A stretch of 64,000 nucleotides of DNA from Patescibacteria group bacterium (GCA_028715115.1 JAQUSN010000002.1:68944-132943), one strand, 5' to 3'. Shown: positions 26,278-49,174, numbered from the stretch's first letter. Translations and numbers: made by a program. The notes: generated by a model not told the origin, from the sequence alone.

Positions 26278-29200
26278 ATGCAACTTAAAAAGAATTTTCA
26301 ATTTAAAATAATTACCGGAGCAGTTTTACTGACCATATTTTGTTCAATATTCACTCCGGTTTTGTTTTATCCTCAAGTTGCCAAGGCTCAATGGGTGGTG
26401 ACAAATCCGCATGATTTTGTGAAAGACATTTTAGAAAAAATCGGCGAAGCGTTAAAAACTGCCGGCTATGTTGCTTATCGAAATTCTTTGAATTTAGTTT
26501 TAGGTCAGATGGCGCAACAAAGCGCTGAGTACTTAGCTACTGGTACTCCGGGGCAGAAGCCGATGTTTTTAAGCAGCTCTAAGTATTGGCTTGATCTTGG
26601 CGATAGCGTATTAGGAGATTTCATCGATACTACGGCCAAGTCGGGCGGTTTCCTTAATCAGAGCTTGTGTGACCCGATTGACCCGACCATTCGTTTTCAA
26701 ATGCTAGTTTCTCTTGATCCAAAATATCAAAAAATGACCTGGAATTCTGAAGCCCGCTGTTCTTTGTCACAAATAGCCGAACGAGCCAGAGAAATGGGAA
26801 AACAAAAATTAATTGATTTTGATGTTAATCTTACCGAAGGCCCGGTCGGCGGTTATAAATCAGATTTAGGGACTATAATTTTAGGCGATGGTCAGTTATC
26901 GCCCACTCAAAAAAAATTACTCTATGGCACCGTTGATAATAAAGGCAATTTTACTTATAAAGGAGTTATTGGCAATTTAATCGACATTCAAGATGAATTC
27001 AGCGCGTTTATTAAAGCAGAAGTTAATAACCAAGTTACCCCGGGCGCAGATATAATTAAAATGACCATAGAGCGGCTTAGTTCCAAGCTAGACGCTGATA
27101 TTTTACATGAGAGTGGGCCAACGGGAGCAAAATGGTGGCACAATTATGCCGTAACTTGTTTAGGCTATGATAAAAAAGAAAATTATTGCAGCGATGTTAA
27201 TTGCGTAACCTATTTTTGTGACACCACTCAGAGCGGTTGTTCTAATAATTTTGAACAGTGTACGCTCCGAACCCAAAGAGTTAATGATTACGCAAAAAAA
27301 ATCATTGACTGGGCTATGAGTTTAAAACAGATGATGAACGAGATTAATCCTGATGATTTTCAGCCTCCCGCTGCAGCCAGTCTTGAGGATTTAAGCAAAA
27401 TGTTTAATCCGGAAGGCAGTTCCGTTGGAGTCGCTTTGAGTTTAAACAGTAGTTTATTTGATAAACAGACTACCGCAGTAGAAAATTCTAAATTTTGGCA
27501 ATTGCTTCAAGGAAGAATTAACGACGTGACTAGCGCTATCTCCGGTTTAACAAAAACTCCATCAACCTTGGTCAGTGAAACTGCTCGCCAGTCGGTCGTC
27601 GAAGGAACGGCCAGTATTAAAACTGTGACTGGCGTAGCGCTAGCTGACGCGGTTGGCGTTTTTACTAACACCTTGATCAATAAAATGATCAAGAACGTAA
27701 TTTACGGCACCGGTCTTAATCCAGAGCTTAACCCAGATCTTAGTAATAATTTGACTGGCGGTGGTTTTTCTGCGCCAGGGCAGAAAGAAGCCAGGGCGAT
27801 GTTCTCAGATTTATCGACCGTTGTTTTAAAAAGGGGAGACAAATTAGATATTTTATCTGAGTTAAGCGCTTGTCCGACAGATAGTAAATATGCCTTGCCG
27901 AATAATTGCACCATTGATTCCGGATTGGTTCGCGCCGCCGAAGCATCAATGACGATTAAGGATGCCATTGATCAGGGATTTTTGCATGGCGATTGGGTAG
28001 TTGGCGGATATAACGTTAAAGATACGAATCGAGATTATGCAACTCGCTATAGCTTGAATAACATCAAAAAAATGCGTCGCAACAGAATCATGCCAGTAGG
28101 TTTAGAAATTGCCGCGCAGAAAATTAATCGAGGCGAATTAGAAGACGCGAAAATAACTCTGTCGCGAATAGTTAATGAATTTAACAAGGTTAATGATAGC
28201 GGAAATTGTGACGGCGGCACTGCTTCGCCGTTTTGTCATCTAGTTGATCCCAATTGGGTCGTTAAGGCTCCGGAAATGAAATGTAAAACAGTTGCTTATT
28301 CAGCTATACCAATGGCCAACAGTAACCAGCGCCAAGAGATTTGTATTGATATGCAAGATTGCATCCACGAAAACGATCGGGGAGAATGTGATACCTATGC
28401 TTACTGTACAAAAGAAAAAAACATTTGGCGGATGGGTGGAGATATTTGTGAATCCCAAAATGCCACCTGCCAAACTTATACCCGCGTTAGAGATGGCCAA
28501 CAATTTTCTTATTTAAATAATACCTTAGACTTTAGCGGTTGCGATCAAAATAATGCTGGTTGCAAATGGTATTGCGATCGTTTTACTAAAGGCCTAGCGG
28601 CCAACGGTGAAAATACTTGGGCTTGTAAAGAGCCGGGAATTTCTTTGAGAAAAGTCGGTACACAGTGGACCGATGATAGCGATCCGTCAAATCATCTTTT
28701 CTTTAATAACAAGGTTTCGCTCTGCAGCTCTACGGCTGAAGGTTGTTCTCAGTTTATTCGTTTAAGTAATAATTCGGGTGTAAATATTTTAGCTAATGGC
28801 AGCTTTGAAATTTATCCAAGCACACAAACTTTTCCTGCCACCACCGTTGACGGCTGGATGGCTAAAACAAATAGCGGCACCTTACATAGTCAATTTATAA
28901 ACGATGGTGGTTTAGCTCGAACCGGAAATATTGTAGCCGGTATTGATTCGGCTCGCGACGATTGGGGCGGAGTGAAACTAGCGGTCGGATCAAACTTAGC
29001 AAGCTTTTTAGTCGACAATAATTCATATTTGATTTCGATTTGGGTCAACAACAAAGACCTTAACCGATCGCACAACATTCATCTTTTTGTTAGCACTAAC
29101 AGCGGTTGGAAGAGTTTATATAATAAAATCATTCCTAGAAATTCTGGTTGGCAAAGATTGATTTATCCTTTTGTTTATCGCGTTGGCGATGGTTATAATT

Positions 29201-34293: not shown

Positions 34294-34296
34294 ATT

Positions 34297-37155
34297 ATGA
34301 AGTTTAACTGGATAAAAAAAATCAACTTCCGCAAAGGGCTGATAATTTTATTAGTTGCCGTTTTTGTTTTGTCCATTTTACCTCGCGTCATTAATGCAGC
34401 CGACTCCGCCGAGCCAGCCGATCAATCTTCAGTTAATAGTATAGAACATCTTTCTCTAACCGTTAGCGGATTGATAACTAGCGCAGTGGTAGCGGCAATT
34501 GGTAAATTAATGGTCGTGGTTATTCGAGTTTTGGTCAGCTTGGCTCAGTATAATGATTTTCTGAAGTCGCCAGTAGTTGATATAGGCTGGAGACTGATTC
34601 GTGATCTTTGCAACATGCTATTTATAGTAATTCTTTTGGTAATTGCTTTTGCGACAGTATTACAGAGAGAACAATATTCTTATAAAAGAATGTTGGGCGC
34701 GCTGGTTCTGGCGGCGGTGTTGGTTAATTTTTCGAAATTAATCTGCGGAGTTATTATTGATTTTTCGCAAGTAGTCATGTTGACCTTTGTCAACGCGATA
34801 AAAGACGCGGCCGAAGGCAACTTTGCCGAATTGATTGGTATTAAGCAGCTTCTTTCCATGACGGCAGATCCTAGTAAACCTTTGACTATAAATTCTTTTG
34901 AATTATCAGTTACTTATTTATTGGCTTTAATTTTTTCTATTGTCGGTTTAGTTATCTTTATTGTTGTTACGGTAATAGTTCTTTTAAGAATAATTATACT
35001 TTGGTTTTTGGTCATGCTTTCACCGGTTGCTTTTATCGCCACAATTTTGCCGCGAACTAATGCTTATGCAAGTCGATGGTGGGATAAGTTTACCAATCAA
35101 GTAATCGTGGGCCCGGTTTTAATGATTTTTATTTGGTTATCGCTATCTATTGTTCAACAAAGTATGAATGACGGAGGTATGTTAAACCATTTAAAGATGG
35201 GAAGTTCTTTACAAAAAACTACTGATTTATTAGGAAATGCCGTGGGCGTGAATAATAATGCAATAGCAGCGGGCGTGGCCGATATTGGTCAGGCGCCTAA
35301 TGTTTTAGGATTTATGGTCGGTATTGCTTTGTTGGTTGGATCGGTGGCTATGGCTCAAGAATTGTCTGCCGCTGGATCTGGTATGGCCATGAACGCGGTT
35401 AATAAAATGAAACAAATCGGCGCCGGCGCTGCGGCTATGCCAGGTAGGTTGGGCGGCAAGGCCTTAAAAGCCGTAGGTCAAAGCGCCGTGGAACGATTTG
35501 AGGCAAAAACGGGTATACCTATTCAACCTAAACACTACAGAGCTGCTTGGGAGAATCGTAAAAGAATAGTACGCGGTCAAAGAGCCGCTCAAATGATGGA
35601 GAAAATGGAGGGGCATCGATTCCTTCGTCCGCCAACGGAATTCGTTAATAATATGTTTTCTACAAAAGGATGGAAAGCTGGCGTTCAGAGAATGTTTGGA
35701 GTTGATGTAGTTAAAAGAAATCAAGCTGCTGAGCTTAATAGACAGCTTGAAGAGCAAAGAGCTAAAATAAACGGAAGATTTACCAGCGATGAAATCGCTA
35801 AGAGCATTACTCAATTAGGAGGCGAGACAGGAGAAGAAGGAGAAATAGGCATGTTAGCAAGAGAACTAGAAGTCTATAAGAGTAAGTTAACCGAAGAAGA
35901 CCGAACTAAATTAGCAAAGGGAGAAAAAATAGAGGAGAAAAAACAGGCTAAAATTGATCAATTGACAGATTTAATTGATTTAAAACGAGCCCGACTGGAG
36001 GAGTTTGAAAACTATAATAGCCAAGCATGGAGAGAACAAAAAGCAAAAGAAGCTGGGGAAGCCGGGGCACAACTTGAGGGAAAAAGAGCAGAACTAAAAG
36101 CCGCAGAAGCCGAGGAAAACCCAGATCAAGCAGATCAAGAAAAAATTAAACAATTAAGAAGAGAAATCGATACATTAGAAGCCCATAAACAGCAGCTTGA
36201 CTTAGAGGCAAATATTATTATAACTCCGGAGCAAAAAGAGCAGGTTTCGGCCGAATTAGCGAAAATAGGTAAGAAATTTGGCGTTAAGATTGACGAGGCA
36301 GACGAAAAGAATCTCCAAAAACAATTAAGAGATTTATCAACGAAAAGAGATAAATTGCGCGTTGAAGGAGAGGTTATTATGCCTACCAGCATGCCATATG
36401 AAGATCAGGCCACGATAAACGCCGCTATATCTCAAGAATCGAAAAATTTACAAGGCATAGAGGATGCTGATGAGTTAGTTACTTTATATCAGGTAGCCAA
36501 AGATAAAAAAGATTTAATTAAAATGAGAGCTATTATTTTGAAATTGACCGAAAATAGAGACTTAAATGAATTACTGGATAAATTGGGGCATGAACAAAAT
36601 TATAAGGGACTTCAAGAATTAATCGAAGAAGATTTTGTTAAGCATATTGGCGGTTCGGCACAAGCGCATTATTCTTTTGGAAACGACGTTACGATGTTGA
36701 ATAAACATGAGGCGGCCTTTGAATTTAGTGGCGCCTATATAAGGGGTACTAATGGAAAATTAAGGACTACTACCGACAAGGAACACAGAAACTTTGTTTT
36801 AATAGAATCAGGTAAGCGAGACAGAGAAACCTTGTTTCGTAAAGATTGGTGGGGGTGGTTAATAGGCAAGCGAGTTGATCCGAATACTGGCAAACGAGTC
36901 CCGATTTGGACTCAAACGATTGAGCAGATCGTTAGAAGGGATTTAGGTATGTTAAAAACAGAGATAGATAAGTCTAGGCTTAATTCCGAGTTAGAATCAT
37001 GTTTCTCCCATCCAGAATTTATAGCTCATTTTCAGGATTTGCAGCAACGGTTTGTTGAAGAGGGCAGAAAGGGCGCAGTTGAACAGATAAAGGGAGTTAT
37101 TAAACACTTGCAGATGAAACAAGGCCAATATTGGCCGACTATAGAAGAAAAATAA
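34297..37155 (+). CDS. VirB6/TrbL/PrgH-like polytopic membrane protein with long charged coiled-coil C-terminal domain
   Basis: Signal peptide (..RVINA/ADS). At least 6 TM helices in the first about 330 aa. About 600-aa E/K-rich C-terminal extension. Position immediately upstream of VirB3/VirB4-like genes. Confidence 0.5.
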   Translation: MKFNWIKKINFRKGLIILLVAVFVLSILPRVINAADSAEPADQSSVNSIEHLSLTVSGLITSAVVAAIGKLMVVVIRVLVSLAQYNDFLKSPVVDIGWRLIRDLCNMLFIVILLVIAFATVLQREQYSYKRMLGALVLAAVLVNFSKLICGVIIDFSQVVMLTFVNAIKDAAEGNFAELIGIKQLLSMTADPSKPLTINSFELSVTYLLALIFSIVGLVIFIVVTVIVLLRIIILWFLVMLSPVAFIATILPRTNAYASRWWDKFTNQVIVGPVLMIFIWLSLSIVQQSMNDGGMLNHLKMGSSLQKTTDLLGNAVGVNNNAIAAGVADIGQAPNVLGFMVGIALLVGSVAMAQELSAAGSGMAMNAVNKMKQIGAGAAAMPGRLGGKALKAVGQSAVERFEAKTGIPIQPKHYRAAWENRKRIVRGQRAAQMMEKMEGHRFLRPPTEFVNNMFSTKGWKAGVQRMFGVDVVKRNQAAELNRQLEEQRAKINGRFTSDEIAKSITQLGGETGEEGEIGMLARELEVYKSKLTEEDRTKLAKGEKIEEKKQAKIDQLTDLIDLKRARLEEFENYNSQAWREQKAKEAGEAGAQLEGKRAELKAAEAEENPDQADQEKIKQLRREIDTLEAHKQQLDLEANIIITPEQKEQVSAELAKIGKKFGVKIDEADEKNLQKQLRDLSTKRDKLRVEGEVIMPTSMPYEDQATINAAISQESKNLQGIEDADELVTLYQVAKDKKDLIKMRAIILKLTENRDLNELLDKLGHEQNYKGLQELIEEDFVKHIGGSAQAHYSFGNDVTMLNKHEAAFEFSGAYIRGTNGKLRTTTDKEHRNFVLIESGKRDRETLFRKDWWGWLIGKRVDPNTGKRVPIWTQTIEQIVRRDLGMLKTEIDKSRLNSELESCFSHPEFIAHFQDLQQRFVEEGRKGAVEQIKGVIKHLQMKQGQYWPTIEEK

Positions 37156-37175
37156 TTTCGTATTTTATATAAATC

Positions 37176-39293
37176 ATGGCCTCCGAATTAATTAATTCTG
37201 AAAAATTAAATCAGCTGAAAAGGGAACTTTTTTTAGATGAAGGTTTTTATAATGGTTTAATTAAAAAATACCGTCAGAATCAAAAATTATTAGAAGATTT
37301 TTTGAAACAAAATCCTAGTTTAAGCAATATTGATCCCAGATTTTTTCAGGAAGTTCAGGATATGCTATTAATGTTAAAATGGTATTCATTTAATTATTTA
37401 ACCGACCAAGAAATCATAGAGATGTTTAGGAATCATGTTAGTGTCGTTCTAAATGATGATACTTTCCCGATTGAAGAAGCGCTGAAAATAGCTTTCTTGG
37501 GTATGTCGATATTAAACGATCGCGACGTTCTAAAGAAGCAAATTAAGGAAGCTTTATTGCAGAATAAGGAAAAAATAACCAGTCAATTAATTAAATTAAA
37601 AGATTCCAGCGTTGAGGGAACGATTGGCAATTGGTTACAGTTATATAATTCGGTTGTTGGGGTTGAGCTGGTTGATAGTTTAAAATTAGCAGAATTTTTT
37701 GTTAAAAATAAAAATTTTACGGCCCTAATGGATTTAGAGGCCGGAAAAATTAAAAAACTATTAGCTCTTTATGAAAAACTAAAATTATCATCCTTAACCC
37801 CTGAGGGCCTAGAAGAGGAAGAATTAGAAGAGGCCGGAGAAGGTCGTGTAATTTTAATGACCGGAACCGGCGCTAAAGAAGTTTATGATATCGAGGGAGA
37901 CAAAAAAGAAGGACTCGTAAAAGAAGAGCTATTAACGCCAGAAACAAAAGCAGCTATAGCCGTTGCCTCGCCGTCAACAATAAAGGAAAATTTAGTGGTT
38001 ACACCTATAGTTAATCAAGCTAAAGAGTTCGTTAAAGATTTGGAAAATATGAATTTGCCAAATTCATCCGAATTTACAAATAATGTTATCTCGACAAAAA
38101 CAGAACCTGATTTTGAAAAAATAATTCAAAATATCGTTGGACAGGCCGGCCTGTCTTTTACCGACGAGAATCTAAAGACCAGGTTTATTGGTCTCATTAC
38201 TTCTTATTTAAAAGGCGTACGAAAAGAATTAGACTTACGCGACGCTTTAATGCGCGGTGAAAAAGTGGGCGGTATGGGTTATGATCAACAAAAAATTACG
38301 GCAATTATGAATATTTTAGCCGGTAGCCGGATCGAAGAAAAAGAAAGCATGCAAAAAGAAACTACCAAACCAGCCCTAGCCGAAGGATTAACTTCGCCGA
38401 TAGAAATTATTAATCCAGTAACGCCTGATTTATCTAGAGAGCCAGGCAAATTATTAGAAGAAGGAGAAGACGCTTTATTAACTGGATCGACGCAAAAGAC
38501 ATCAGACAATATAGAAGTGCAACAAGAAAAATTTTCTTCAGGTTCGCTTGCGCCCGTTGTTGATGATAGTAAAATACCGGAAAACGTTTCTTCGTCTTTT
38601 GAAAATATAGTAACATCCGAAGAAGAGCCGATTAAACAGCCTCCGGCAGAAGATTTTTTGGCAAAATTTGACTTGTCGTCGGCATTTGGTTCTGATAAAA
38701 CCGAAGAAGCCGATCAGGGAATAAAATCACAAGAAGCAAGCGATATGAACATTGATGCTTCGATTGAAGATTTGAATTCCCAACTAGCTGCTAATAATGT
38801 TTTACCGACAGAAGAGGCTAAGCCAACAGAACTTGTCGAGCCCGCGTCTATTTCGGAACCAGAGCAGAAAATTGTCGAGCCCTCAGATGGTGCTATTAAA
38901 AATATCTATCGTGCTCCGGAGCCGGAAGAAGCGCCTCAGCCGCCCATAGAAGAGGTCAGGGTAACCCCAAGAGCCTATGGCCCGGTTGACGAGCTTAGAA
39001 GTCTAACCTTAGAAGATTGGCGACGTTGGGGAGGTGTGGGTGAAGCAGTAAAACTTATTTTAGATAAAATTAATTTATTAGCAGAAGAATCTTTGACTAA
39101 AAAATCTGAAGGCATCGCCGCCTGGAAAGGCTCAGAAATAAACAAAATGTATTTGGATATAGGTACCGAGGCAATTAATAATGGATTGTCGGTTGAGCAA
39201 GCTATTGAAAAAAGGAAAAGTGCTAATTTACCGACTTTAACCATTGACGAATTTAATGCTATTTCGGAAATAAATCAAAAACTACGTTTTTAA
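37176..39293 (+). CDS. hypothetical acidic protein (T4SS-cluster accessory)
   Basis: 705 aa, no TM, with an E/P/S-rich low-complexity central region. Sits within the operon. Confidence 0.4.
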   Translation: MASELINSEKLNQLKRELFLDEGFYNGLIKKYRQNQKLLEDFLKQNPSLSNIDPRFFQEVQDMLLMLKWYSFNYLTDQEIIEMFRNHVSVVLNDDTFPIEEALKIAFLGMSILNDRDVLKKQIKEALLQNKEKITSQLIKLKDSSVEGTIGNWLQLYNSVVGVELVDSLKLAEFFVKNKNFTALMDLEAGKIKKLLALYEKLKLSSLTPEGLEEEELEEAGEGRVILMTGTGAKEVYDIEGDKKEGLVKEELLTPETKAAIAVASPSTIKENLVVTPIVNQAKEFVKDLENMNLPNSSEFTNNVISTKTEPDFEKIIQNIVGQAGLSFTDENLKTRFIGLITSYLKGVRKELDLRDALMRGEKVGGMGYDQQKITAIMNILAGSRIEEKESMQKETTKPALAEGLTSPIEIINPVTPDLSREPGKLLEEGEDALLTGSTQKTSDNIEVQQEKFSSGSLAPVVDDSKIPENVSSSFENIVTSEEEPIKQPPAEDFLAKFDLSSAFGSDKTEEADQGIKSQEASDMNIDASIEDLNSQLAANNVLPTEEAKPTELVEPASISEPEQKIVEPSDGAIKNIYRAPEPEEAPQPPIEEVRVTPRAYGPVDELRSLTLEDWRRWGGVGEAVKLILDKINLLAEESLTKKSEGIAAWKGSEINKMYLDIGTEAINNGLSVEQAIEKRKSANLPTLTIDEFNAISEINQKLRF

Positions 39294-39368
39294 CCCTACC
39301 ACTAAACTACTAAAACTGGCGTAAAATTCAGGAGAATAGGGTATTTTAATTCGTAATTTGTAGTAGTA

Positions 39369-39788
39369 ATGCAGTTTATTGTTCCTCAATTTATCGACAT
39401 TGAACCTAAAATTATCGGGCCGGTTACGCCACGGCAGTTTATTATTTTAATTATTACCGGTGCGTTTATTTTTGTCGCTTATAAATTATCTGATTTTTCT
39501 TTATTTATTATCGAAGCGGTAGCTTTATTAGGCCTAGGAGGGACTCTAGCTTTTTTGAAAATAAACGGCCAACCGGTTCACTATTTTTTATTAAACTTAA
39601 CCCAGACTTTTAAACGACCAATGTTAAGAATTTGGAGAAAAGATTTTATTATGGCAAAAGAATTAGCGGTTAAAGAAAAAGTAAAGATAGCGCCGGTAGC
39701 TATTCCGCGTAAAACGCTTTCTAATGCCCGGCTTTCAAATTTATCAATTTTAGTTGATACGGGCGGAATGTATCATGAGGAGGTTTGA
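39369..39788 (+). CDS. VirB3/PrgI-like small two-TM T4SS protein
   Basis: 139 aa. Two TM helices around PRQFIILIITGAFIFVAYKL and FIIEAVALLGLGGTLAFL. Directly precedes the VirB4 N-domain, as PrgI precedes PrgJ. Confidence 0.45.
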   Translation: MQFIVPQFIDIEPKIIGPVTPRQFIILIITGAFIFVAYKLSDFSLFIIEAVALLGLGGTLAFLKINGQPVHYFLLNLTQTFKRPMLRIWRKDFIMAKELAVKEKVKIAPVAIPRKTLSNARLSNLSILVDTGGMYHEEV

Positions 39789-39799
39789 TTTAAATTTTT

Positions 39800-40468
39800 A
39801 TGAGTAAAACTGCAGCCATTTCATCAACACAAAAATATTTAGACATCTCCGAGGTGCGAAGTGATTGTATTATTTTAAAAGACGGAACCATGCGAGCCGT
39901 GCTTTTGGTTTCTTCAATCAACTTTTCCTTAAAGTCAGAGGACGAGCAAAAGGCGACCGTTTCGGCTTATGTTCAATTTTTAAATACCTTGGAGCACCCC
40001 TTACAAATAATAATCCAGTCTCGTCGCCTGAATATCGAGAATTATTTAGTTGACCTAAATACCCGCCAAAAAGAGCAAACCAACAATTTATTAAAAGCTC
40101 AAATGGCCGAATATATTGATTTTATAAAAGAATTAGTCGATTTGGGAGAAATAATGACCAAGAAATTTTATGTTGTCGTGCCCTACAGTCCTATGGGTGA
40201 TAAAAAATTAAAATTTTTCTCCCGCCTATCGAGCGCTTTTACGGCCGGATCAGCTATTAGACTGAAGCGCGAGCGATTTGAGGCCTATCGAGAGCAATTA
40301 TTTAGAAGAGTTGATAATGTTAGTTCGGCGTTGTCGAGCATGGGGTTAAGAGTCGTGCCACTTGATACTCAAAGTTTAATTGAATTATTATATAATAGTT
40401 ACAATCCGGTCGAATCGGCAGTTCAAAAATTAGCCGAAATAAATAAGCTTAACATCGAAACGATTTAA
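39800..40468 (+). CDS. VirB4/TraE/PrgJ N-terminal domain, separate ORF ending in an in-frame TAA
   Basis: LDISEVRSDCIILKDGTMRAVLLVSSINFSLKSEDEQKATVSAYVQFLNTLEHPLQIIIQSRRLNIENYL matches the CagE/TrbE/VirB4 N-terminal pattern. Same reading frame as the next ORF. Confidence 0.55.
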   Translation: MSKTAAISSTQKYLDISEVRSDCIILKDGTMRAVLLVSSINFSLKSEDEQKATVSAYVQFLNTLEHPLQIIIQSRRLNIENYLVDLNTRQKEQTNNLLKAQMAEYIDFIKELVDLGEIMTKKFYVVVPYSPMGDKKLKFFSRLSSAFTAGSAIRLKRERFEAYREQLFRRVDNVSSALSSMGLRVVPLDTQSLIELLYNSYNPVESAVQKLAEINKLNIETI

Positions 40469-40471
40469 TTT

Positions 40472-42442
40472 ATGGCTATTCGTCCATCAGCTATTAATCG
40501 CGCCACTGCAATGCCAGAGAAGAAACCGACTCCTCAACAAAAGGAGCAGGTTAAAATTGTTCAAGAAAAGCAAATAAAAAATCTTTTAGATTCGGAAGAG
40601 GCATATTTAAAGGGACTAATGTCGGTTCGCGACTTGATTGCGCCGGCCGCGCTTAAGGTTAATCCTTCCTTTTTGCAATTAGGAGATAAATATATTAGAA
40701 CGCTTTTCGTGACCGCTTATCCTCGTTATATTTCTGTAGGTTGGTTTGCGCCAGTAATAAATTTTAATGCTTCTCTTGATGTGGCCATGTTTTTCTATCC
40801 GGTTAATTCGGGTGTGGTTTTGAAACAACTGCAAAAGAGAGTGGGCAATATTGAAGCGGAATTATCAGCTGAGCGTGATAAAGGGATGCCTCGAGATCCG
40901 ATTAAAGAGACCGCTTTACAAGATATTGAGAAGCTTCGCGACGACCTAACGACGGGAGTAGAACATTATTTTCAATTTGCTCTTTATGTAACCATGTATG
41001 CGAATTCATTGAAAGACCTTGATTCAATGACGGAAAAAATAGAAGCGCTATTCGGTTCAAAATTGATTTACACCAGACAAGTATTTTACCAAGCCGAACA
41101 AGGATTTAATTCGACCTTGCCTTTAGCTAGCGACGAGCTGATGGTGACCTTTAACATGAGTTCTTCTCCCTGTGCCTCATCTTTTCCTTTTATCTCCGCT
41201 GACGTTACTTCAGATACCGGGATTTTATATGGTATTAACAGGCACAACAATGGCCTGATTATCTTTGATAGATTTAGTATGCAGAATGCTAATATGAATG
41301 TTTTTGCTACTAGTGGCGCTGGCAAAAGCTACGCTATTAAGCTCGAGGTTTTGCGCTCAATGATGTTTGGCACCGATGTAATTATTATTGACCCAGAAAG
41401 AGAATATAAATATTTATCAGATGCCGTAGGAGGAACATATGTGAATATTTCTTTATCTTCGGATAGCAAAATTAATCCTTTTGATTTGCCCAGGGCTACT
41501 TCGGCCGATATGACTGCAGCTGACATAATTCGTTCGGCAGTTATTACTATTAAAGGATTGTTAAGAATTATGATTGGCAAGACCGACGAAAGAGGAACAA
41601 AGCAGTTTTCGCCGGAAGAGGATTCAATTATTGATCGCGCTCTACTTGAGACTTATGCTAAAAGAGATATTACGCCATCTGCTGACTTAAGCCAAATTAC
41701 TGAAATGCCGACCATGTCTGATTTGCAAAATATTTTAGAGGGCATGGAGGGCGGGGCCCAGTTGTCAGAAAGGCTGAAAAAGTATACCGAAGGCACCTTT
41801 GCCGGACTATTAAATAATCCGACCAACGTTAAAGTTAATAATCAATTAATAGTTTTTTCGGTTCGCGACTTAGAAGATGAGCTTCGGCCGATAGCTATTT
41901 ATACTATTGTCAATTATATTTGGAACATCGTCCGTTCTGAACTTAAAAAAAGAATTCTCGTCATTGATGAGGCTTGGTGGTTAATGCAGCAAGAGGATTC
42001 GGCAAAATTTATTTATGCTTTAGTCAAACGTTGCCGAAAATATTATCTAGGTGTGACTACGATCACTCAAGACGTTAACGATTTTTTGGTTTCTCCTTAT
42101 GGCAAAGCTATTGTAAATAACTCGGCGCTGCAACTTTTATTAAAACAAGCTCCGGCGGCGATTGATTTAGTGGCGCAAACATTCATGTTAACCGAAGGAG
42201 AAAAATATTTACTATTAGAGTGCGGGGTAGGTGAAGGGATTTTTTTCGCTGGCGCCAAACACGCAGCCATTAAGATTATTGCTTCGTACTCCGAAGATCA
42301 ATTAATTACTTCTGATCCGCGGCAAATCTTAGAAATCGAACAGGCCAAAAGGGAGTTTTCTCAAAAAGAGGCTGGCGATGCCGTGGTTGATCAGGGCGGG
42401 CAAAAAGAATTTGTTAAGGGTGTTGGTGATTTAGAAATTTAA
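40472..42442 (+). CDS. VirB4/TraE/PrgJ-family T4SS ATPase, C-terminal ATPase domain
   Basis: Walker A ATSGAGKSY. IIDPEREYKYL..GGTYVNISL...INPFDL. Walker B RILVIDEAWW. This is the canonical VirB4 motif series. Confidence 0.85.
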   Translation: MAIRPSAINRATAMPEKKPTPQQKEQVKIVQEKQIKNLLDSEEAYLKGLMSVRDLIAPAALKVNPSFLQLGDKYIRTLFVTAYPRYISVGWFAPVINFNASLDVAMFFYPVNSGVVLKQLQKRVGNIEAELSAERDKGMPRDPIKETALQDIEKLRDDLTTGVEHYFQFALYVTMYANSLKDLDSMTEKIEALFGSKLIYTRQVFYQAEQGFNSTLPLASDELMVTFNMSSSPCASSFPFISADVTSDTGILYGINRHNNGLIIFDRFSMQNANMNVFATSGAGKSYAIKLEVLRSMMFGTDVIIIDPEREYKYLSDAVGGTYVNISLSSDSKINPFDLPRATSADMTAADIIRSAVITIKGLLRIMIGKTDERGTKQFSPEEDSIIDRALLETYAKRDITPSADLSQITEMPTMSDLQNILEGMEGGAQLSERLKKYTEGTFAGLLNNPTNVKVNNQLIVFSVRDLEDELRPIAIYTIVNYIWNIVRSELKKRILVIDEAWWLMQQEDSAKFIYALVKRCRKYYLGVTTITQDVNDFLVSPYGKAIVNNSALQLLLKQAPAAIDLVAQTFMLTEGEKYLLLECGVGEGIFFAGAKHAAIKIIASYSEDQLITSDPRQILEIEQAKREFSQKEAGDAVVDQGGQKEFVKGVGDLEI

Positions 42443-42456
42443 TATAAAATTATTTT

Positions 42457-43020
42457 ATGAAAAAAGTAATCATCATTATTATCATTATACTTATAATCGG
42501 CGTTATTTTTTATTATTTAAATTGGCGCGGCAAAAACACCGCAAATCCTTTAATCCCAAGTAACAACCAGACCCAAATTAATGAACAGAACAATGATTTT
42601 ACGAATGAGGGCCAAACTGACAATACGCCCGTAGACCCAACTGCTAAATTAGAAAACGATTTAACCGTGATGGCTCGCGCTTTTATTGAACAATACGGCT
42701 CATGGTCAAACCAATCTACCTTTTCCAATTTTACAGACCTTTATCCTTATATGACTAGCTCATTAATGGCGCAAACTCAAAACCTAGTTAACCAGAAAAT
42801 AGCCGAAAAAAAATTATCCTTGAGTTATTATGGCATTACTACCAAAATATTATCTTTAGAATTGAAAAATTTGGCCGAGCCGACTGGCGAATTTTTTGCC
42901 AATATCCAACAACAAGAAACAAAAGGCGACACTACTACGGTTTTATACAAAACAGTAAAATTGGTTTTATTAAAAGAAGGGTCTCAATGGAAGGTCAATG
43001 ACATCATTTTTAATCCATAA
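42457..43020 (+). CDS. N-terminally anchored secreted protein, possible VirB8/PrgL/TcpC-like (NTF2-like) T4SS component
   Basis: One N-terminal TM, then a domain of about 140 aa ending ..EGSQWKVNDIIFNP. Size and position after VirB4 fit PrgL-like proteins. No diagnostic motif. Confidence 0.3.
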   Translation: MKKVIIIIIIILIIGVIFYYLNWRGKNTANPLIPSNNQTQINEQNNDFTNEGQTDNTPVDPTAKLENDLTVMARAFIEQYGSWSNQSTFSNFTDLYPYMTSSLMAQTQNLVNQKIAEKKLSLSYYGITTKILSLELKNLAEPTGEFFANIQQQETKGDTTTVLYKTVKLVLLKEGSQWKVNDIIFNP

Positions 43021-43031
43021 TTTTATTAATT

Positions 43032-43985
43032 ATGGGTGACTTTGTTGATCCAAAAATAAGAGAGGAAATAGAACGAAAGGATGCTTCGGATGCTGAAAAA
43101 TATAATCTTGACACTTCTGATCCTGACTATCTAGCTGCTCAAAAGCGCGGCAGAGGAGAAGATGAAGAATTTGAAGAATCAATTAGGCAAATAAAAGAGC
43201 AACGCCAAGCCAGGGAATTAAAACAACAAAGACTTAAAGAAGCTTCTAGTCGAAAAGCAGCAATAAATCGACAAGTGCAAACTCCCGAAATGCAACAGAC
43301 ATATCGGGACTTCAAAGATCATAAAGGTTACTCTGATTTTAGTGAAGAAAGAGCCAGGGCCAGAGACAATAAAGAATATATGAATAAGGCCCGTGCATTA
43401 TCTAACGTTGCCGTTGACGCAGCGGCAACAAGCATAAAGCGAGGCGATATTAAAGGAGCCATCACTGCTGGCCTAAAGGCTGCCGGAGAGATGGGAGGTC
43501 AAATAGCAACTGCCAAAATTTTGCAGTTCATGTGGGAAAATTTTTATTATGTGTTGCCAATATTTTATATAGATTTTCATTTTATAATGCGGTATATTGC
43601 TGGCTCTAAGTTGTTTTGTCGCCTAGGACAGGAATGGCTTATGAAAGGCAGTGGTAAGGCTGCTTCTGGAGCGCAAAAAGCATCAACAGCCGAACAAGGG
43701 TTAGAGGCGGCAAAATCTTCTACAACGGGAGCACAAGCGACTGCAGGACAAACAAGCGGAGATTTAAACAAGCTAGCTGATCAAATCGCCGAAGCCCCTA
43801 ATAAATTTTTGGAAATTATCGAAATCGCTGCTTTAATGGTTTGTAATTTGATAATTGGCGCTGCAATTTATTTAATCCTGATATATATTTTTATCATGAC
43901 TCATCCTTGCCAGTCAGCGGCTATTGTTACTCATTCCGAGGGCATTTTGAAGGCCTTTAAAAGTATTGGTATTAATTGTAAATAA
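43032..43985 (+). CDS. hypothetical protein, charged N-terminus and hydrophobic C-terminal segments (T4SS-cluster accessory)
   Basis: 317 aa. C-terminal TM-like IIEIAALMVCNLIIGAAIYLILIYIFIM. Overlaps the next ORF. Confidence 0.35.
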   Translation: MGDFVDPKIREEIERKDASDAEKYNLDTSDPDYLAAQKRGRGEDEEFEESIRQIKEQRQARELKQQRLKEASSRKAAINRQVQTPEMQQTYRDFKDHKGYSDFSEERARARDNKEYMNKARALSNVAVDAAATSIKRGDIKGAITAGLKAAGEMGGQIATAKILQFMWENFYYVLPIFYIDFHFIMRYIAGSKLFCRLGQEWLMKGSGKAASGAQKASTAEQGLEAAKSSTTGAQATAGQTSGDLNKLADQIAEAPNKFLEIIEIAALMVCNLIIGAAIYLILIYIFIMTHPCQSAAIVTHSEGILKAFKSIGINCK

Positions 43986-45207
43986 TTGTATGTTAATTAA
44001 TAAAAACATTCTCGGCATATTTATCTTTATTCTTTTATTGTTTGTTTTTTTAATTGGCGGCGCTCATATTATTAAGGCGCAAACTACTTTCACCCCCTCG
44101 GTCGGGATAGGAGATAGTAATTTTCAAGCTGGTTCGGGCGTAGAAATTACAGGACTATCAATAGCTGATTATATTATTGCCGTTTATAAATGGTCAATTA
44201 GGGTTATCGCGATTTTAGCCGTTATTGTTATCATGGTGGCTGGCTTTCGTTGGGTTAGCGCTGCCGGAAATGCATCAGTAATCGGCCAAGCGAAGAATCA
44301 GATGATCGATGCATTTATCGGATTAATTTTAGTGATTGGCGCTAATTTATTGTTATATTTTATTAATCCGGCCTTGGTGAGGTTTAACGATCTTTCAATA
44401 ACGCACATAAAGAAGGTTAGTTTGGATAATTATGATTTTCCGATAGAGCAAGCCATTATGCCTAATATCTGGGACGAAAGCGAAAAACAGCCAAATATTA
44501 AGGCTAGCGCCTGTGGAATACAGGCCGTGGATCAGGAAGATGGGAGAACTTATCTTGGGGTCAAATGTTCGTCGGCCGGAGTGCCGGGTGCTTCCATTAG
44601 GAAGCCTTGTGTTTTACAATTTAGTTTAACATCACAGGACTATCAAGATGATATTAATAAAAAAGCAGATATAGCCGAATATTTGGCAGATATTTATTAT
44701 CTTGGCAAAGATTCTGGTTATAACGTAGAGTCTGGTTGTATTAGTAGGGGGTCGGTATTTAAATACATGATCCCGATTTACGGATTAATTGAGGCAGCGA
44801 CTACGACGTATGGGAAGGTAAGTTTGCCCTTCAGAGATGATCCAACCGTAATGTACGATTTTGCTCTTGATCCATCAACTAATTGCGGCGTTAAAAAAGG
44901 AGAAGGAGATATTATAAAAAATAAGATTGGGATGAAAGTTGGGATAAAATGTCCTAATTCGAATTCAACGTGTGTCTTTGCTCTGGTTAATGTTACTGAT
45001 GATAAAATAAATAAGACTGCCGTTAAATTTTATAGTTTTTGTAAACCAGATAGCGGAATGCCTATGTGTGAACCAAGTGAGAGAAGAGTAAATTGTGAAA
45101 GATATACTAATTGTAAAGTATCAGGATGCACAAATGAGATAGACGCATCCGGAAAATCAATTTGTTGCCAGCAGGCAGTTGATAGGGCGGTTTTGAGGAA
45201 TTTTTAG
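43966..45207 (+). CDS. pilin-like (VirB2/TrbC-type two-TM hairpin) module fused to Cys-rich extracellular domain; paralog of the N-terminal module of the 46510 protein
   Basis: Module YIIAVYKWSIRVIAILAVIVIMVAGFRWVSAAGNASVIGQAKNQMIDAFIGLILVIGANLLLYFINP (about 44160..44390). A likelier start is the ATG at 43990, just after the upstream stop. Confidence 0.5.
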   Translation: MVLIVNNCMLINKNILGIFIFILLLFVFLIGGAHIIKAQTTFTPSVGIGDSNFQAGSGVEITGLSIADYIIAVYKWSIRVIAILAVIVIMVAGFRWVSAAGNASVIGQAKNQMIDAFIGLILVIGANLLLYFINPALVRFNDLSITHIKKVSLDNYDFPIEQAIMPNIWDESEKQPNIKASACGIQAVDQEDGRTYLGVKCSSAGVPGASIRKPCVLQFSLTSQDYQDDINKKADIAEYLADIYYLGKDSGYNVESGCISRGSVFKYMIPIYGLIEAATTTYGKVSLPFRDDPTVMYDFALDPSTNCGVKKGEGDIIKNKIGMKVGIKCPNSNSTCVFALVNVTDDKINKTAVKFYSFCKPDSGMPMCEPSERRVNCERYTNCKVSGCTNEIDASGKSICCQQAVDRAVLRNF

Positions 45208-45225
45208 TCGTCAAATTTTTATATC

Positions 45226-46506
45226 ATGAATAAAAGAATACTATTGATAGTTTTGTTTTTTGTGGCGGTTATAGCCATAGCTTTGGTTTTGTATTTTTTT
45301 ATTTTTAGGACCAATATTTCCGCGCCGCCGATTAATGAGGCGCAAAACTTAATCAACGAGCAAACCGGCAAATTGCCAGTAAGTCGTGAACAATGGGAGG
45401 GCATGACTATAAATGAGCGGGCTAGCGCCAATTTACCTTTATACGAATGGCAGGAAGCGGCGCCTGCTCAATCTTCAGAAGCACAGCCGGTAGTTTTGCA
45501 AGTCTCTGAGATAGCCAACGGCGGTAAAACCATTATTAATCCTGTTTCCAATGATTCGGCGCAAAGTGCCACATTGTCTTTCGATGGACAAAATAGCTTA
45601 TTCTATAACTCAACTGATGGTAAATTCTATCAGGTAGATAAGAACGGCATTAAAACGTCTTTAAGCAATCAAGTTTTTCATAATGTCAGTAATGTTAATT
45701 GGGCGCCAAATAAGGACAGAGCGATTATCGAATATCCCGATGGCTTTAAAATAATGTATGATTTTAAAAATCAGAAACAATACACCCTGCCGAACAATTG
45801 GGAAGACTTTTCTTGGGATTCTCGCGGGAATCAAATTGTTTTCAAGGCTACTTCGCAATATTCACAAAATAATTGGTTAGCCGTAGCTAATTCCGATGGA
45901 ACCGGGGCGAGGGCCATAGAAAATATGGGTGATAACGGCGATAAGGTTACCGTCTCCTGGTCGCCCAATAATCAAGTCGTTGCTTTTTCGGCTACTGGTC
46001 AAGCGCAATCAGCTTGGCAGCAAGAGGTTTTATTAATCGGCCAAAATGGAGAAAATTTTAAATCTTTGATTATCGATGGCCGTGGTTTTGAAACTCAATG
46101 GAATCCGCGAGGCGATAGCATAGCTTATAGTGTTTATAGTGCCGACAGCGGCTATAAACCAACATTATATTTAGTAAAAGCGCAGGGAGATGAAATCGGT
46201 AACGATAAAATTAACACAGGCCTTAACACCTGGTCTCATAAATGCGCTTATAATTCTAGCGGCAGTTATCTTTTTTGCGCCGTTCCTAAAAGTTTACCAG
46301 AGGGGTCGGGGATGATGAGCGAGTTAGCTACTAATCTGCAAGATAATTTTTATAAAATTAACGCCATTACCGGCGAAAAGACATTTTTAGCCGAAGGAGC
46401 AATGGGTGGTTATGATGTTTCCCAGCTATTTATTTCGGGAGACGATGGTACGTTATATTTTATTGATAAAAATTCAGGAATATTAAGATACATAAAATTA
46501 AGATAG
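45226..46506 (+). CDS. TolB-like beta-propeller protein with N-terminal TM anchor
   Basis: Repeating blade motifs WAPNKDRAI, FSWDSRGNQIVF, VSWSPNNQVVAF, TQWNPRGDSIAY. Confidence 0.5.
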   Translation: MNKRILLIVLFFVAVIAIALVLYFFIFRTNISAPPINEAQNLINEQTGKLPVSREQWEGMTINERASANLPLYEWQEAAPAQSSEAQPVVLQVSEIANGGKTIINPVSNDSAQSATLSFDGQNSLFYNSTDGKFYQVDKNGIKTSLSNQVFHNVSNVNWAPNKDRAIIEYPDGFKIMYDFKNQKQYTLPNNWEDFSWDSRGNQIVFKATSQYSQNNWLAVANSDGTGARAIENMGDNGDKVTVSWSPNNQVVAFSATGQAQSAWQQEVLLIGQNGENFKSLIIDGRGFETQWNPRGDSIAYSVYSADSGYKPTLYLVKAQGDEIGNDKINTGLNTWSHKCAYNSSGSYLFCAVPKSLPEGSGMMSELATNLQDNFYKINAITGEKTFLAEGAMGGYDVSQLFISGDDGTLYFIDKNSGILRYIKLR

Positions 46507-46509
46507 ATT

Positions 46510-47823
46510 GTGATCAATTTTTTCTTAAAAAATAGATTTTTTAGAACTTCCAAGCTCGGTTATCTCTTGGTGGTTTTTGTCTTAATGGGTTTTTTGTTTT
46601 TTTTATTTCAAAACGTGCTGGCTATTAGCTGTTGCTATGGTTCTAATATCGAGCCAAGGTGCAAAGATATTACTACTGGATTTTGTCCACTGCCATATAC
46701 CATGCAGGCGAAAGATACTACTTGCGCTAATTGTACTGATTGTTTTTGCCAGGGCAGCTTCGCGCCAGCCGATGCTACTGATCCTGTGCCAACAAAAAAT
46801 ACAGAACAAAAAACTCCAGATATTATCCCTACTCTTCAAGTTCAAATTCCCGGTTTTTCTGGATTTTCCAAAGATATCCAAGTTTGTTTAGAGGAGGGCA
46901 AGACTTTAGACGAGTGTCAAAAGGGCAAAACAGGCTATTCAATTCCATGGATAGGGGAATATTTAATCGCTGTTTATAAATGGGCGGTTAGAGCTATCGC
47001 TATTTTGGCCGTGATAATTATTATGTGGGGCGGGTTGCAGTGGATATTAGCTCGTGGCAATTCCTCGGCCATTACGGAAGCTAAATCAAAAATAAGTTCA
47101 GCTTTGATCGGCATAGTAATTATCGTTGGTATGAATGTTTTTTTGTCGGCTATTAACCCCAATTTAACAATCTTAAAACCTATTACCCTGGGCAAGATTG
47201 AACCAATAATTATCACTCCATTAGATTCAGACAAAGAAGAGGGCGGTATTAGTGGTCCTAATGCCGGTACCAGCATAGATATGGGGGGCAATTGTTTTCC
47301 TGTTAGTGCGGATAGCATCAAACAAACCCAATGGAATTTTGGTAATAGCCGTAGTAGCGGCAAACGTTGTCATGCTGGCATTGATATTTTAACCAATTGG
47401 CGGTCGGGTAATGATAGTGTAGTGGCTATAGGGGACGGTCGCGTTTTGGCTGTTTACGGTTTTTATACTTGTAGTACCGAAACCGGTAAGGGTGGACACG
47501 TTAGTGCAATTTTTATTGATCACAAAAAATTAAATTATACAGTTTTATATGGTGAAGTAGATGATGATAGTATTCTGGTAAAAAATGGAGATGAAGTGAG
47601 GGCTGGTCAACTTTTAGGCCAAGCAAGCCGTTGTGGGATGTTACACCTTGAAATGTATGAAGCCGGTGCCAGAGGAAATAAAACATGGTATCCTCCAAAT
47701 GGACAAAGAGTTGAGAATCAACCTAATTATTGCCAACAAAATTTTTTAAATACAAAGCCGTCAACATTATTGGACCCAACGGCCACTTTAAAATATTTAG
47801 ATGGCAAAAGATGTAGTATTTAA
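46510..47823 (+). CDS. pilin-like module fused to M23 (LytM-type) peptidase domain; putative cell-wall hydrolase of the T4SS-like system
   Basis: N-terminal TM plus a Cys-rich segment. Module YLIAVYKWAVRAIAILAVIIIMWGGLQWILARGNSSAITEAKSKISSALIGIVIIVGMNVFLSAINP. M23 core HAGIDI ... GGHVSAIFIDH ... GMLHLEMYE (HxxxD present; second motif reads HLE rather than HxH). Confidence 0.55.
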   Translation: MINFFLKNRFFRTSKLGYLLVVFVLMGFLFFLFQNVLAISCCYGSNIEPRCKDITTGFCPLPYTMQAKDTTCANCTDCFCQGSFAPADATDPVPTKNTEQKTPDIIPTLQVQIPGFSGFSKDIQVCLEEGKTLDECQKGKTGYSIPWIGEYLIAVYKWAVRAIAILAVIIIMWGGLQWILARGNSSAITEAKSKISSALIGIVIIVGMNVFLSAINPNLTILKPITLGKIEPIIITPLDSDKEEGGISGPNAGTSIDMGGNCFPVSADSIKQTQWNFGNSRSSGKRCHAGIDILTNWRSGNDSVVAIGDGRVLAVYGFYTCSTETGKGGHVSAIFIDHKKLNYTVLYGEVDDDSILVKNGDEVRAGQLLGQASRCGMLHLEMYEAGARGNKTWYPPNGQRVENQPNYCQQNFLNTKPSTLLDPTATLKYLDGKRCSI

Positions 47824-49174
47824 AATTATGGCCTCTAATAAATTAAAAATAATATTTAATTGTTCGAAGTGCGACGCTCAATTTCCTAAATGGTTTGGTC
47901 AGTGTCCGGAGTGTGGTTCGTGGGGAACATTGCAAGAGATGGTTGAAAAACAAACGAGAGCTAAAAGTTTAAACGTCTCAGCTGGCGATGTTATTGATTT
48001 CGAAGAAGTGAAAGGCAGGGAGTTTCCTCGTACCAAAACTGGGCTAGAAGAATTAGATCGTGTTTTAGGTGGTGGCATAGTGCCGGGCTCCTTGATTTTA
48101 CTGGGCGGTGAGCCTGGTATTGGTAAATCGACTCTAGTTCTGCAATTAGCCGCTAAATTAGCTAATAATTCAATTTTATATATTTCTGGAGAAGAGTCGG
48201 CCGAACAAATTAAGATGCGATTGGATCGTCTTAAGTTGCCGACGACGAATTTAAAATTTTTAGGCGAAACCGATATAGAAGTAATTTGCGCTACTATCGA
48301 AAAAGTAAAACCATCTTTGGCGATCATAGATTCAATTCAAACAATTTGGTTTTCTAATCTTCCTTCTGAGGCTGGCAACGTTAACCAAATTAAGGCTTGC
48401 ACGGCAAAATTATTGGAAACTGCCAAAAAAAATAATGTACCTACGGTTATTATTGGTCACGTTACTAAAGAAGGGTTTGTCGCTGGACCAAAAACGCTAG
48501 AACATCTAGTTGATACAGTTCTTTATCTTGAAGGAGACCAATTTCACAACTTTAGACTATTACGCGCGGTAAAAAATCGTTTTGGCGCAACCAATGAAGT
48601 GGGTGTTTTTGATATGCGCGAAGGGGGATTAATAGAAGTTAAAAATCCTTCGGAAATATTTTTAGCTTCGCGAGACAAAGATTTGCCCGGAGTAGTAGTC
48701 GGCGCTATTGTTGAAGGTACGAGATCTTTTTTGGTTGAAGTTCAGGCCCTGGTAACTCAAACGCATTTTGGCTATCCCCAGCGCCGATCTATCGGCTTTG
48801 ACAATAATCGGTTGCAATTAATTACTGCTATTTTATCGCGCCGTTGCGGGATAAATTTAGGTAATTATGATGTTCATATTAATATTGCTGGCGGCATTGA
48901 TATCCGCGAGCCAGCCGTAGACCTACCGGTTTGTTTGTCGATTATTTCGGCTTTTAAAAATAAACCATTTGACCCGAAGATAGCGGCGTGTGGCGAGGTA
49001 GGCTTAGGAGCAGAAGTGCGACCAATAAATAGTATTGAAAAAAGAATCAAAGAAGCGGAGAGATTGGGTTTTAATAAAATATTAGTACCCAGGTCAGATC
49101 TTAAATCAATTAATCGTAAAATAGAGATAATTCAAATTAAAAATTTAAATGACGCAATGAAGTTATGGCTGTAA
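47801..49174 (+). CDS. radA: DNA repair protein RadA (Sms)
   Basis: Zn finger CSKCDAQFPKWFGQCPECGSWGT. Walker A GGEPGIGKSTL. KNRFG motif. Lon-protease-like C-terminal domain. Confidence 0.9.
   Translation: MAKDVVFKIMASNKLKIIFNCSKCDAQFPKWFGQCPECGSWGTLQEMVEKQTRAKSLNVSAGDVIDFEEVKGREFPRTKTGLEELDRVLGGGIVPGSLILLGGEPGIGKSTLVLQLAAKLANNSILYISGEESAEQIKMRLDRLKLPTTNLKFLGETDIEVICATIEKVKPSLAIIDSIQTIWFSNLPSEAGNVNQIKACTAKLLETAKKNNVPTVIIGHVTKEGFVAGPKTLEHLVDTVLYLEGDQFHNFRLLRAVKNRFGATNEVGVFDMREGGLIEVKNPSEIFLASRDKDLPGVVVGAIVEGTRSFLVEVQALVTQTHFGYPQRRSIGFDNNRLQLITAILSRRCGINLGNYDVHINIAGGIDIREPAVDLPVCLSIISAFKNKPFDPKIAACGEVGLGAEVRPINSIEKRIKEAERLGFNKILVPRSDLKSINRKIEIIQIKNLNDAMKLWL

Follow-up and report, generated by a model that had tools for sequence, protein, structure and literature searches.

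The closest described relatives of the locus reported here are the type IV secretion systems (T4SSs) of other Patescibacteria. S. epibionticum carries a Gram-positive-like T4SS (locus SEML1_0006-0019) with a pilin array and without a relaxase, which proved essential for epibiotic growth in transposon sequencing (Tn-seq) (Wang et al., 2023; PMC10633639), and large surface proteins that bear domains for glycan binding are likewise essential in this species (PMC10633639). A survey of 2474 Patescibacteria virB4 genes revealed a relationship to the MPF-FATA group and named as components TrsD, PrgI, VirB6, VirB2-like arrays and hydrolases bearing M23 or LysM domains (Quinonero-Coronel, 2025; PMC12102498). 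VirB8 was scarce in this survey and mostly found in class ABY1, type IV coupling proteins (T4CPs) were distant and relaxases absent, linkage to KsgA (rsmA) was general, and linkage to comF, recG and radA was seen in ABY1 (PMC12102498). A 2025 review and a 2024 perspective stressed that the function of the Patescibacteria T4SS is unknown. Here, we describe a further example of this already published system, including its rsmA/radA linkage, in a 64,000-nt stretch of DNA from a Patescibacteria group bacterium (GCA_028715115.1 JAQUSN010000002.1:68944-132943). This whole stretch is called the window, and all positions are counted within it. The locus at 26278-47823 is very probably a chromosomal Patescibacteria T4SS that descends from monoderm (MPF-FATA) conjugation machinery and is re-used for a non-conjugative purpose (Table 1).

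When we compared the locus with the published Patescibacteria systems, we found the same monoderm-type VirB4, TrsD, PrgI/VirB3, genes with VirB2-like pilin domains and wall hydrolases beside virB4, and a putative extended VirB6. It likewise has no relaxase, a T4CP homologue far off, a housekeeping context, and KsgA (rsmA) and, as in ABY1, radA nearby. The hairpins are arranged differently: S. epibionticum has six small pilins of about 126-138 aa, whereas here the hairpin lies inside Cys-rich proteins of 405-437 aa, one of them with a hydrolase. A propeller, a giant protein with a carbohydrate-binding module (CBM) and a 253-aa anchor protein are conserved here and unnamed in the published descriptions of Patescibacteria T4SSs, and hairpin-hydrolase fusions find no mention there, although supplementary tables or other papers may cover them. 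The giant protein and the anchor protein as syntenic components, the exchangeable hydrolase modules and the conserved propeller are possibly new details.

With the Prg/Pcf system of E. faecalis pCF10 the locus has in common the order VirB6-like, VirB3-like, VirB4, hydrolase, VirB8-like, the PrgI family and a PrgL-like fold. Among the MPF-FATA relatives, to which pIP501 Tra also belongs, the cutoff of the CD1110 profile (C. difficile CTn2) is passed, the TrsD-like protein has its counterpart in pGO1 Trs, and the VirB8-like fold resembles TraM, TraH and TcpC. The locus differs from pCF10 and the MPF-FATA systems in lacking a relaxase, genes for oriT processing, an adjacent T4CP anchored in the membrane and an adhesin of the PrgB type. 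VirB2-like hairpins are present here, whereas Gram-positive systems lack them (PMC12102498). The hydrolase is carried on a hairpin protein and is not of the PrgK type (SLT+CHAP), and the locus is chromosomal and apparently inherited vertically.

Table 1. Positions and properties of the predicted products of the T4SS locus and of related genes in the window.
Feature	Position	Strand	Properties or basis
Soluble VirD4/TrwB-like ATPase with C-terminal zinc ribbon	5598..7163	+	19 kb upstream of the cluster, among housekeeping genes
253-aa acidic protein	25439..26200	+	between rsmA and the giant gene, outside the range reported before; N-terminal anchor
Giant secreted Cys-rich protein, 2671 aa	26278..34293	+	N-terminal hydrophobic segment, CBM_4_9
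Extended VirB6-like protein	34297..37155	+	polytopic domain (aa ~1-350), then ~600-aa charged C-terminal extension
705-aa acidic protein	37176..39293	+	pI 4.6, no transmembrane segment; no family
PrgI/VirB3-like small membrane protein	39369..39788	+	139 aa; Pfam PrgI
TrsD/TraC-like, N-terminal part of split VirB4	39800..40468	+	222 aa, just upstream of VirB4
VirB4 ATPase, Gram-positive (MPF-FATA, CD1110) type	40472..42442	+	NCBIfam, Pfam, Walker motifs
VirB8-like bitopic protein	42457..43020	+	transmembrane helix, disordered linker, NTF2-like domain; predicted structure
317-aa fast-evolving protein	43032..43985	+	charged N-terminal half, hydrophobic segments; no family
VirB2-like hairpin protein with ~280-aa Cys-rich C-terminal ectodomain	43990..45207 (or from TTG 43966)	+	405/413 aa
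Membrane-anchored beta-propeller	45226..46506	+	426 aa; predicted structure
VirB2-like hairpin fused to M23 peptidase domain	46510..47823	+	437 aa; Pfam
radA	47801..49174	+	Pfam domains as usual for RadA; 23-nt overlap with the last T4SS gene

The locus consists of eleven consecutive open reading frames (ORFs) on the plus strand, which form a real tiling path. A preliminary description of this DNA had counted twelve, although its own list also names eleven. The products comprise, in order, 2671, 952, 705, 139, 222, 656, 187, 317, 413/405, 426 and 437 aa, and in four public contigs that carry this stretch the independently called genes have identical products (405 aa for the ninth). Neighbouring ORFs are separated by gaps of 3, 20, 75, 11, 3, 14, 11, 18 and 3 nt. 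The single overlap (20 nt), which arises when the ninth ORF is started from TTG 43966, is replaced by a gap of 4 nt if the ORF is read from ATG 43990, the start used in the public calls. The order on one strand and the spacing (gaps of 3-75 nt or overlaps) could be re-derived as described before and match the public gene calls.

The VirB4 ATPase had been recognized previously, and the product exceeded the curated cutoff of the NCBIfam profile conju_CD1110 (338 vs. 325 bits; profile positions 175-729 of 752). It also matched Pfam P-loop_TraG (E 3.5e-28), carries a Walker A motif (ATSGAGKS) and a Walker B motif (ILVIDE), and is weakly similar, over local stretches, to CedB and CedD, the ATPases of the Ced import system. 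The upstream ORF, which had been called a VirB4 N-domain, covers N-terminal profile positions that are absent from VirB4. Its NCBIfam matches (CD1110 VirB4 positions 2-105, VirB4_plasma 102-233, TrsD 25-151) are all below the curated cutoffs, and there is a precomputed TraC-like match (PF26593). Since this ORF corresponds to positions 2-105 and VirB4 to positions 175-729 of the same CD1110 model, the two genes together tile VirB4. The product of the ORF at 39369 scored 23.6 bits against Pfam PrgI (E 7.6e-5; cutoff 27). PrgI was matched by 16 of its 16 orthologues (best E 3.6e-10) and TcpE by six of them, and the earlier VirB3/PrgI-like call holds at the family level.

The 42457 product is bitopic, and its N-terminal transmembrane (TM) helix is followed by a predicted extracytoplasmic NTF2-like domain, which is the topology of the VirB8 family. 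When its orthologues were scanned one by one against Pfam, a VirB8 match was obtained in 1 of 20 and was weak (E 0.0026), and a profile search of PDB sequences with the family returned only TM-helix noise. The predicted fold matches PrgL, TraM, TraH and TcpC. As the sequence searches were indecisive, the VirB8 likeness was resolved by the predicted structure alone, which confirmed the putative call made before. According to this model, the protein is related to VirB8 at the level of fold, to which the genomic context is added, and not by membership in a sequence profile. For the VirB6-like product the Pfam TrbL/VirB6 match had an E-value of 0.003, below the gathering score, and at least six TM-like segments were counted. 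TrbL was matched by two of nine orthologues (best E 5.6e-5), and a profile search of PDB sequences with the family yielded nothing. Its gene lies upstream of PrgI, which is the prgH-prgI order. The previous VirB6 call finds weak support in the E-value of the window copy, in these two orthologues and in the polytopic N-terminal domain. Taken together, the translocon core comprises an extended VirB6 (weak call), PrgI/VirB3, a split VirB4 (TrsD-like protein plus ATPase) and a bitopic VirB8-like scaffold.

For the VirB4 protein we found 32 genome contigs with relatives at 64-77% identity. The named ones carry labels of Patescibacteria, i.e. the candidate phyla radiation (CPR), including Kerfeld-, Uhr-, Komeili- and Nomurabacteria, and these database names support the CPR host that had been proposed. 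To any plasmid VirB4 the protein was at most 35% identical, and the closest plasmid proteins were all from monoderm hosts. Synteny was counted as loci with the neighbour over loci with room for it, in sets anchored on VirB4 or on the giant gene (79 metagenome loci). In the VirB4-anchored loci, the TrsD-like gene was present in 29/29, PrgI in 28/28, the C-domain found in the 705-aa product, immediately before PrgI, in 26/28, the VirB8-like gene in 25/30, the propeller and the hairpin proteins in 18/22 each, radA after the cluster in 11/15 and VirB6 in 8/17. In the giant-anchored loci, the gene of the 253-aa anchor protein preceded the giant gene directly in 64/65, rsmA stood before the anchor gene in 56/62, and VirB6 followed downstream in 27/39. 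The order that recurs in dozens of Patescibacteria contigs is rsmA, anchor, giant, VirB6, PrgI, TrsD, VirB4, VirB8-like, hairpin, propeller, hairpin-hydrolase, radA, and the complete stretch from rsmA to the hairpin genes is present in several loci.

Both extracellular hairpin proteins had been described as pilin-like, one with a Cys-rich and the other with an M23 domain, and these calls were borne out at the level of Pfam profiles: T4SS_pilin was matched by 24 of 26 members of the hairpin family, and the M23 score exceeded its cutoff. In the ninth product (start at 43966 or 43990), T4SS_pilin was found at aa 72-133 with 25.6 bits (E 1.3e-5; cutoff 26.6), and this product has a signal-like segment, two TM segments and 15 Cys. 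In the 46510 product, T4SS_pilin reached 26.8 bits at aa 150-215 and Peptidase_M23 33.3 bits at aa 288-386 (cutoff 28.7). The gene between propeller and radA keeps a constant architecture (signal-like segment, Cys-rich stretch, hairpin, hydrolase), and a fusion of hairpin and hydrolase was observed in 8 of 10 proteins scanned one by one. The hydrolase was SLT in six, NlpC/P60 in one and 3D in one, with M23 in the window copy. Judging from these sequences, the catalytic module of the last hairpin protein appears to be exchanged between genomes, and the protein is a candidate functional analogue of VirB1/PrgK. M23 peptidases carry HxxxD and HxH zinc/catalytic motifs. In the window copy (judged by eye), H288-xxx-D292 is kept, but M377-L-H379 stands in the place of HxH, and Y347-G-E where Y-x-H is usual. 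A search of PDB sequences with this domain returned only a spurious designed-ankyrin match.

The 45226 product had been described as a TolB-like propeller. TolB consists of a periplasmic N-terminal alpha/beta domain and a six-bladed propeller that binds Pal. The model of the 45226 product (pLDDT 91.8) shows a TM-anchored propeller with about 28 strands, and its best structural matches are seven-bladed propellers, from which we infer seven blades for this protein as well. A profile search of PDB sequences with the family gave nothing significant. The propeller fold was upheld, but the TolB features were not found, and the protein is taken as a generic propeller without demonstrable TolB identity.

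The giant protein contains 109 Cys and a CBM_4_9 domain at aa 1311-1394. A match to a spike-fibre-like domain covers aa 903-1008 (E 5e-6) but stays below the curated cutoff. Self-BLAST indicated no internal repeats, and a search of PDB sequences found nothing. Its first 1200 aa retrieved 1297 cluster representatives, mostly 2400-3300 aa long, in which many cysteines are invariant, and CBM_4_9 was present in 9 of 12 family members. In alignment A9 of this family, single members carry HINT/intein, PA14 or dockerin domains beside the common CBM_4_9. A VirB5-like N-terminus, raised by a weak DUF4141 match (E 0.006), was considered and dropped, since conservation in the family is lowest over the N-terminal ~360 aa. 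We regard the protein as a candidate adhesin or host-surface binder. In the 253-aa protein (pI 4.3), a single TM-like segment spans aa 10-28, and the sequence contains two motifs of DxDxDG type and a helical repeat of ~35 aa that is duplicated; no Pfam family was matched. Since a homologue is found directly upstream of the giant gene in nearly all loci, it is probably an extra member of the cluster, and in L023 a homologue also adjoins the T4SS core. The slot directly upstream of VirB6 varies: in place of the giant protein, it is filled by a Cys-rich M23 protein in L018 (2149-4137) and L024 (2076-4010) and by a hairpin protein in L007 (903-1898). Two hairpin proteins, the anchored propeller, the giant Cys-rich CBM protein and the small DxDxDG anchor protein make up the extracellular set.

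As to the mechanism, VirB4 with its TrsD-like partner would drive assembly and transport via a VirB6/VirB3/VirB8 channel, and the hydrolase-hairpin protein may open the peptidoglycan in the manner of VirB1/PrgK. An extracellular conduit or structure would be formed, or anchored, by the hairpin proteins together with the propeller, and binding to the host surface may fall to the giant carbohydrate-binding protein and its small anchor neighbour. Most likely, the machine acts at the site of host-cell contact and moves macromolecules there.

The preliminary description had argued that the locus is not a conventional conjugative element, and it had noted the absence of a relaxase, an integrase and an adjacent coupling protein. 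We did not find any of them either. No relaxase or integrase Pfam family was detected in the scanned window ORFs of at least 100 aa (nearly all non-nested), although a very divergent relaxase may have escaped detection. The window has no tRNA and no Rfam match, and the search for flanking direct repeats (att) gave AT-rich chance matches only. The locus lacks the relaxase, the membrane-anchored coupling protein and the integrase/att that mark a conjugative element, and its chromosomal synteny is conserved. A decaying ICE (integrative conjugative element), left cryptic after loss of relaxase and integrase, would account for the gene order and VirB4 family of Gram-positive conjugative elements, for a VirD4-like ATPase elsewhere in the window and for the slightly higher GC content of the locus (0.38-0.40 vs. 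0.34-0.36 just upstream). However, the locus is made up throughout of intact ORFs with strong conservation, VirB4 is far closer to its chromosomal relatives than to any plasmid protein, and the same position between rsmA and radA is repeated in dozens of divergent genomes, which argues for an ancient chromosomal locus and not for an ICE. A remnant of this kind is largely refuted and seems highly improbable to us, and on the sequence evidence the locus appears to be inherited vertically at an ancient, fixed chromosomal position. A different question is how far the machine extends. It may be limited to PrgI, TrsD, VirB4, the VirB8-like protein, the hairpin proteins and the propeller, with the giant protein, the anchor protein and possibly VirB6 as neighbours of independent surface function. 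This is suggested by the absence of VirB6 upstream of the core in 9/17 VirB4-anchored loci, by PrgI or TrsD downstream in only 9/19 giant-anchored loci with room, by the different Cys-rich proteins in the slot upstream of VirB6, and by rsmA, which shows that synteny can be non-functional here. Against such a restriction, the giant gene adjoins VirB6 in most loci with room and is 3 nt away from it in the window, large glycan-binding surface proteins are essential together with the T4SS in S. epibionticum (PMC10633639), and monoderm T4SSs as a rule depend on an adhesin of their own, PrgB for example, whereas no such protein has otherwise been detected in Patescibacteria (PMC12102498). We consider the restricted machine rather unlikely.

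Direction and cargo of the transport are putative, and we slightly favour uptake of host nucleic acids over export of effectors. In one variant of the explanation given above, the T4SS would work inward, as ComB of H. pylori and the archaeal Ced system do, and import nucleic acids of the host, while RadA would process the single-stranded DNA (ssDNA) that arrives. All three are machines with a VirB4-family ATPase, and the weak CedB/CedD similarity fits, as does the radA linkage with DNA processing. The overlap of radA with the last T4SS gene and its position after the cluster favour nucleic-acid uptake, comF, recG and radA are common in the T4SS loci of ABY1 (PMC12102498), the reviews name the T4SS as a candidate route of nucleotide uptake, and in a 2026 preprint a cultivated relative acquires host RNA and forms tubular structures at the interface, possibly T4SS pili. 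On the other hand, the upstream rsmA linkage is equally conserved without a plausible functional tie, so that the radA linkage may be frozen synteny and function should not be read from it, and mreC, mreD and PBP2 follow radA at equally tight spacing. The search of the locus brought up no component that binds DNA, competence of S. epibionticum needs ComEC and is dispensable whereas its T4SS is essential, ComB is of the diderm type (VirB2-B10) and acts together with ComEC, and the Ced components beyond the ATPase are unrelated. An import machine of precisely this type is a minority view in our judgement. The opposite direction, delivery of proteins (toxins, hydrolases, manipulators) into or onto the host bacterium in the manner of effector-translocating T4SSs, perhaps with the giant protein as substrate or adhesin, is somewhat unlikely in our judgement. 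A locus without relaxase or adjacent coupling protein resembles that of S. epibionticum, whose authors suggested protein export or an alternative role (PMC10633639), wall-hydrolase modules are present on cluster proteins, and effector delivery is speculated upon in the 2024 perspective. However, neither genes resembling effectors nor secretion signals were identified, the giant and hairpin proteins begin with hydrophobic segments of Sec type and do not need a T4SS for their export, and the sole T4CP-like protein is soluble and encoded at a distance of 19 kb.

Several points weigh against the interpretation as a re-used monoderm T4SS and its proposed scope. Spacing is uninformative on co-transcription in this genome. 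A total of 47 of the 50 genes in the window are on the plus strand, and the median gap is 11 nt within the locus and 21.5 nt outside it. Tight packing continues unbroken upstream (POR, rsmA and the 253-aa ORF, the last two with a 4-nt overlap) and downstream (radA, then mreC, mreD and PBP2). Because such packing is the norm across the window, spacing neither proves nor delimits one transcription unit, and scans for promoter and terminator consensus sequences, with counts at the level of shuffled controls, were of no help for operon boundaries. The VirB6 assignment is weak by sequence. Conserved rsmA linkage means that linkage need not mean function, so that the argument from radA loses force, as does the case for counting the giant protein as part of the machine. 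In the M23 domain the first His of HxH is missing, which makes its catalytic competence uncertain, and the experimental evidence comes entirely from another class (Saccharimonadia), in which the pilins have 126-138 aa vs. the 405-437-aa fusions here. At the speculative end, and in our view improbable, the VirB2-like "pilins" would be no simple subunits of a pilus but hairpin anchors embedded in the membrane that display Cys-rich ectodomains and swappable hydrolases. The propeller, the giant protein and the anchor protein, which putatively binds Ca, would join them in an extracellular module for attachment and penetration that is specific to this lineage and sits on a nucleic-acid-importing core of Gram-positive type, with RadA handling the strands.

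The T4SS of Patescibacteria is essential in the sole species tested, and it is a leading candidate route by which these abundant, biosynthetically crippled bacteria draw on their hosts. The locus described here is no new system, but it adds detail on parts that published surveys left unannotated, and it does so for the non-Saccharimonadia majority of the phylum. It offers as leads a structure-supported VirB8 equivalent right after virB4, a conserved propeller and hairpin-hydrolase fusions with swapped modules. A further lead is the linkage of VirB6 to a giant, widespread carbohydrate-binding protein with a small anchor protein beside it. All of these are candidate parts for host contact.

Two products of the locus are without a family. 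For the 705-aa product there was no match in Pfam or NCBIfam, and a profile search of PDB sequences with its family was not significant. It has a conserved N-domain (aa ~40-220) and a conserved C-domain (aa ~590-705), which are encoded by two separate genes in L004, L007, L011, L012 and L016, so that either the window copy is a fusion or the genes of the relatives are splits. The 317-aa product had no Pfam or NCBIfam match, and weak homologues occur at the equivalent position in L005 and L027. In L063, L091 and L101, homologues are located between the giant gene and VirB6 instead of after the VirB8-like gene.

The distant VirD4-like ATPase matched Pfam TrwB_AAD_bind, TraG-D_C and zf_Tbcl_2, and its NCBIfam match to CD1115 VirD4-like (E 1.3e-10) was below the cutoff. 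It carries a Walker A motif (GKTGVGKS) and a CxxC-x17-CxxC zinc ribbon and has no TM segment. A tie between this ATPase and the T4SS cluster is unproven.

The housekeeping genes that flank the locus are rsmA, radA, mreCD, PBP2 and gyrB, and rsmA upstream and radA downstream had already been named before. Among housekeeping surroundings, a 632-aa ORF (16409-18307, plus strand) and a 281-aa ORF (12898-13743, plus strand) gave no Pfam match at E 1e-4. GC skew was positive in every 2-kb bin of the window, and, together with the strand bias of the genes, this is consistent with one replichore of a very compact genome.

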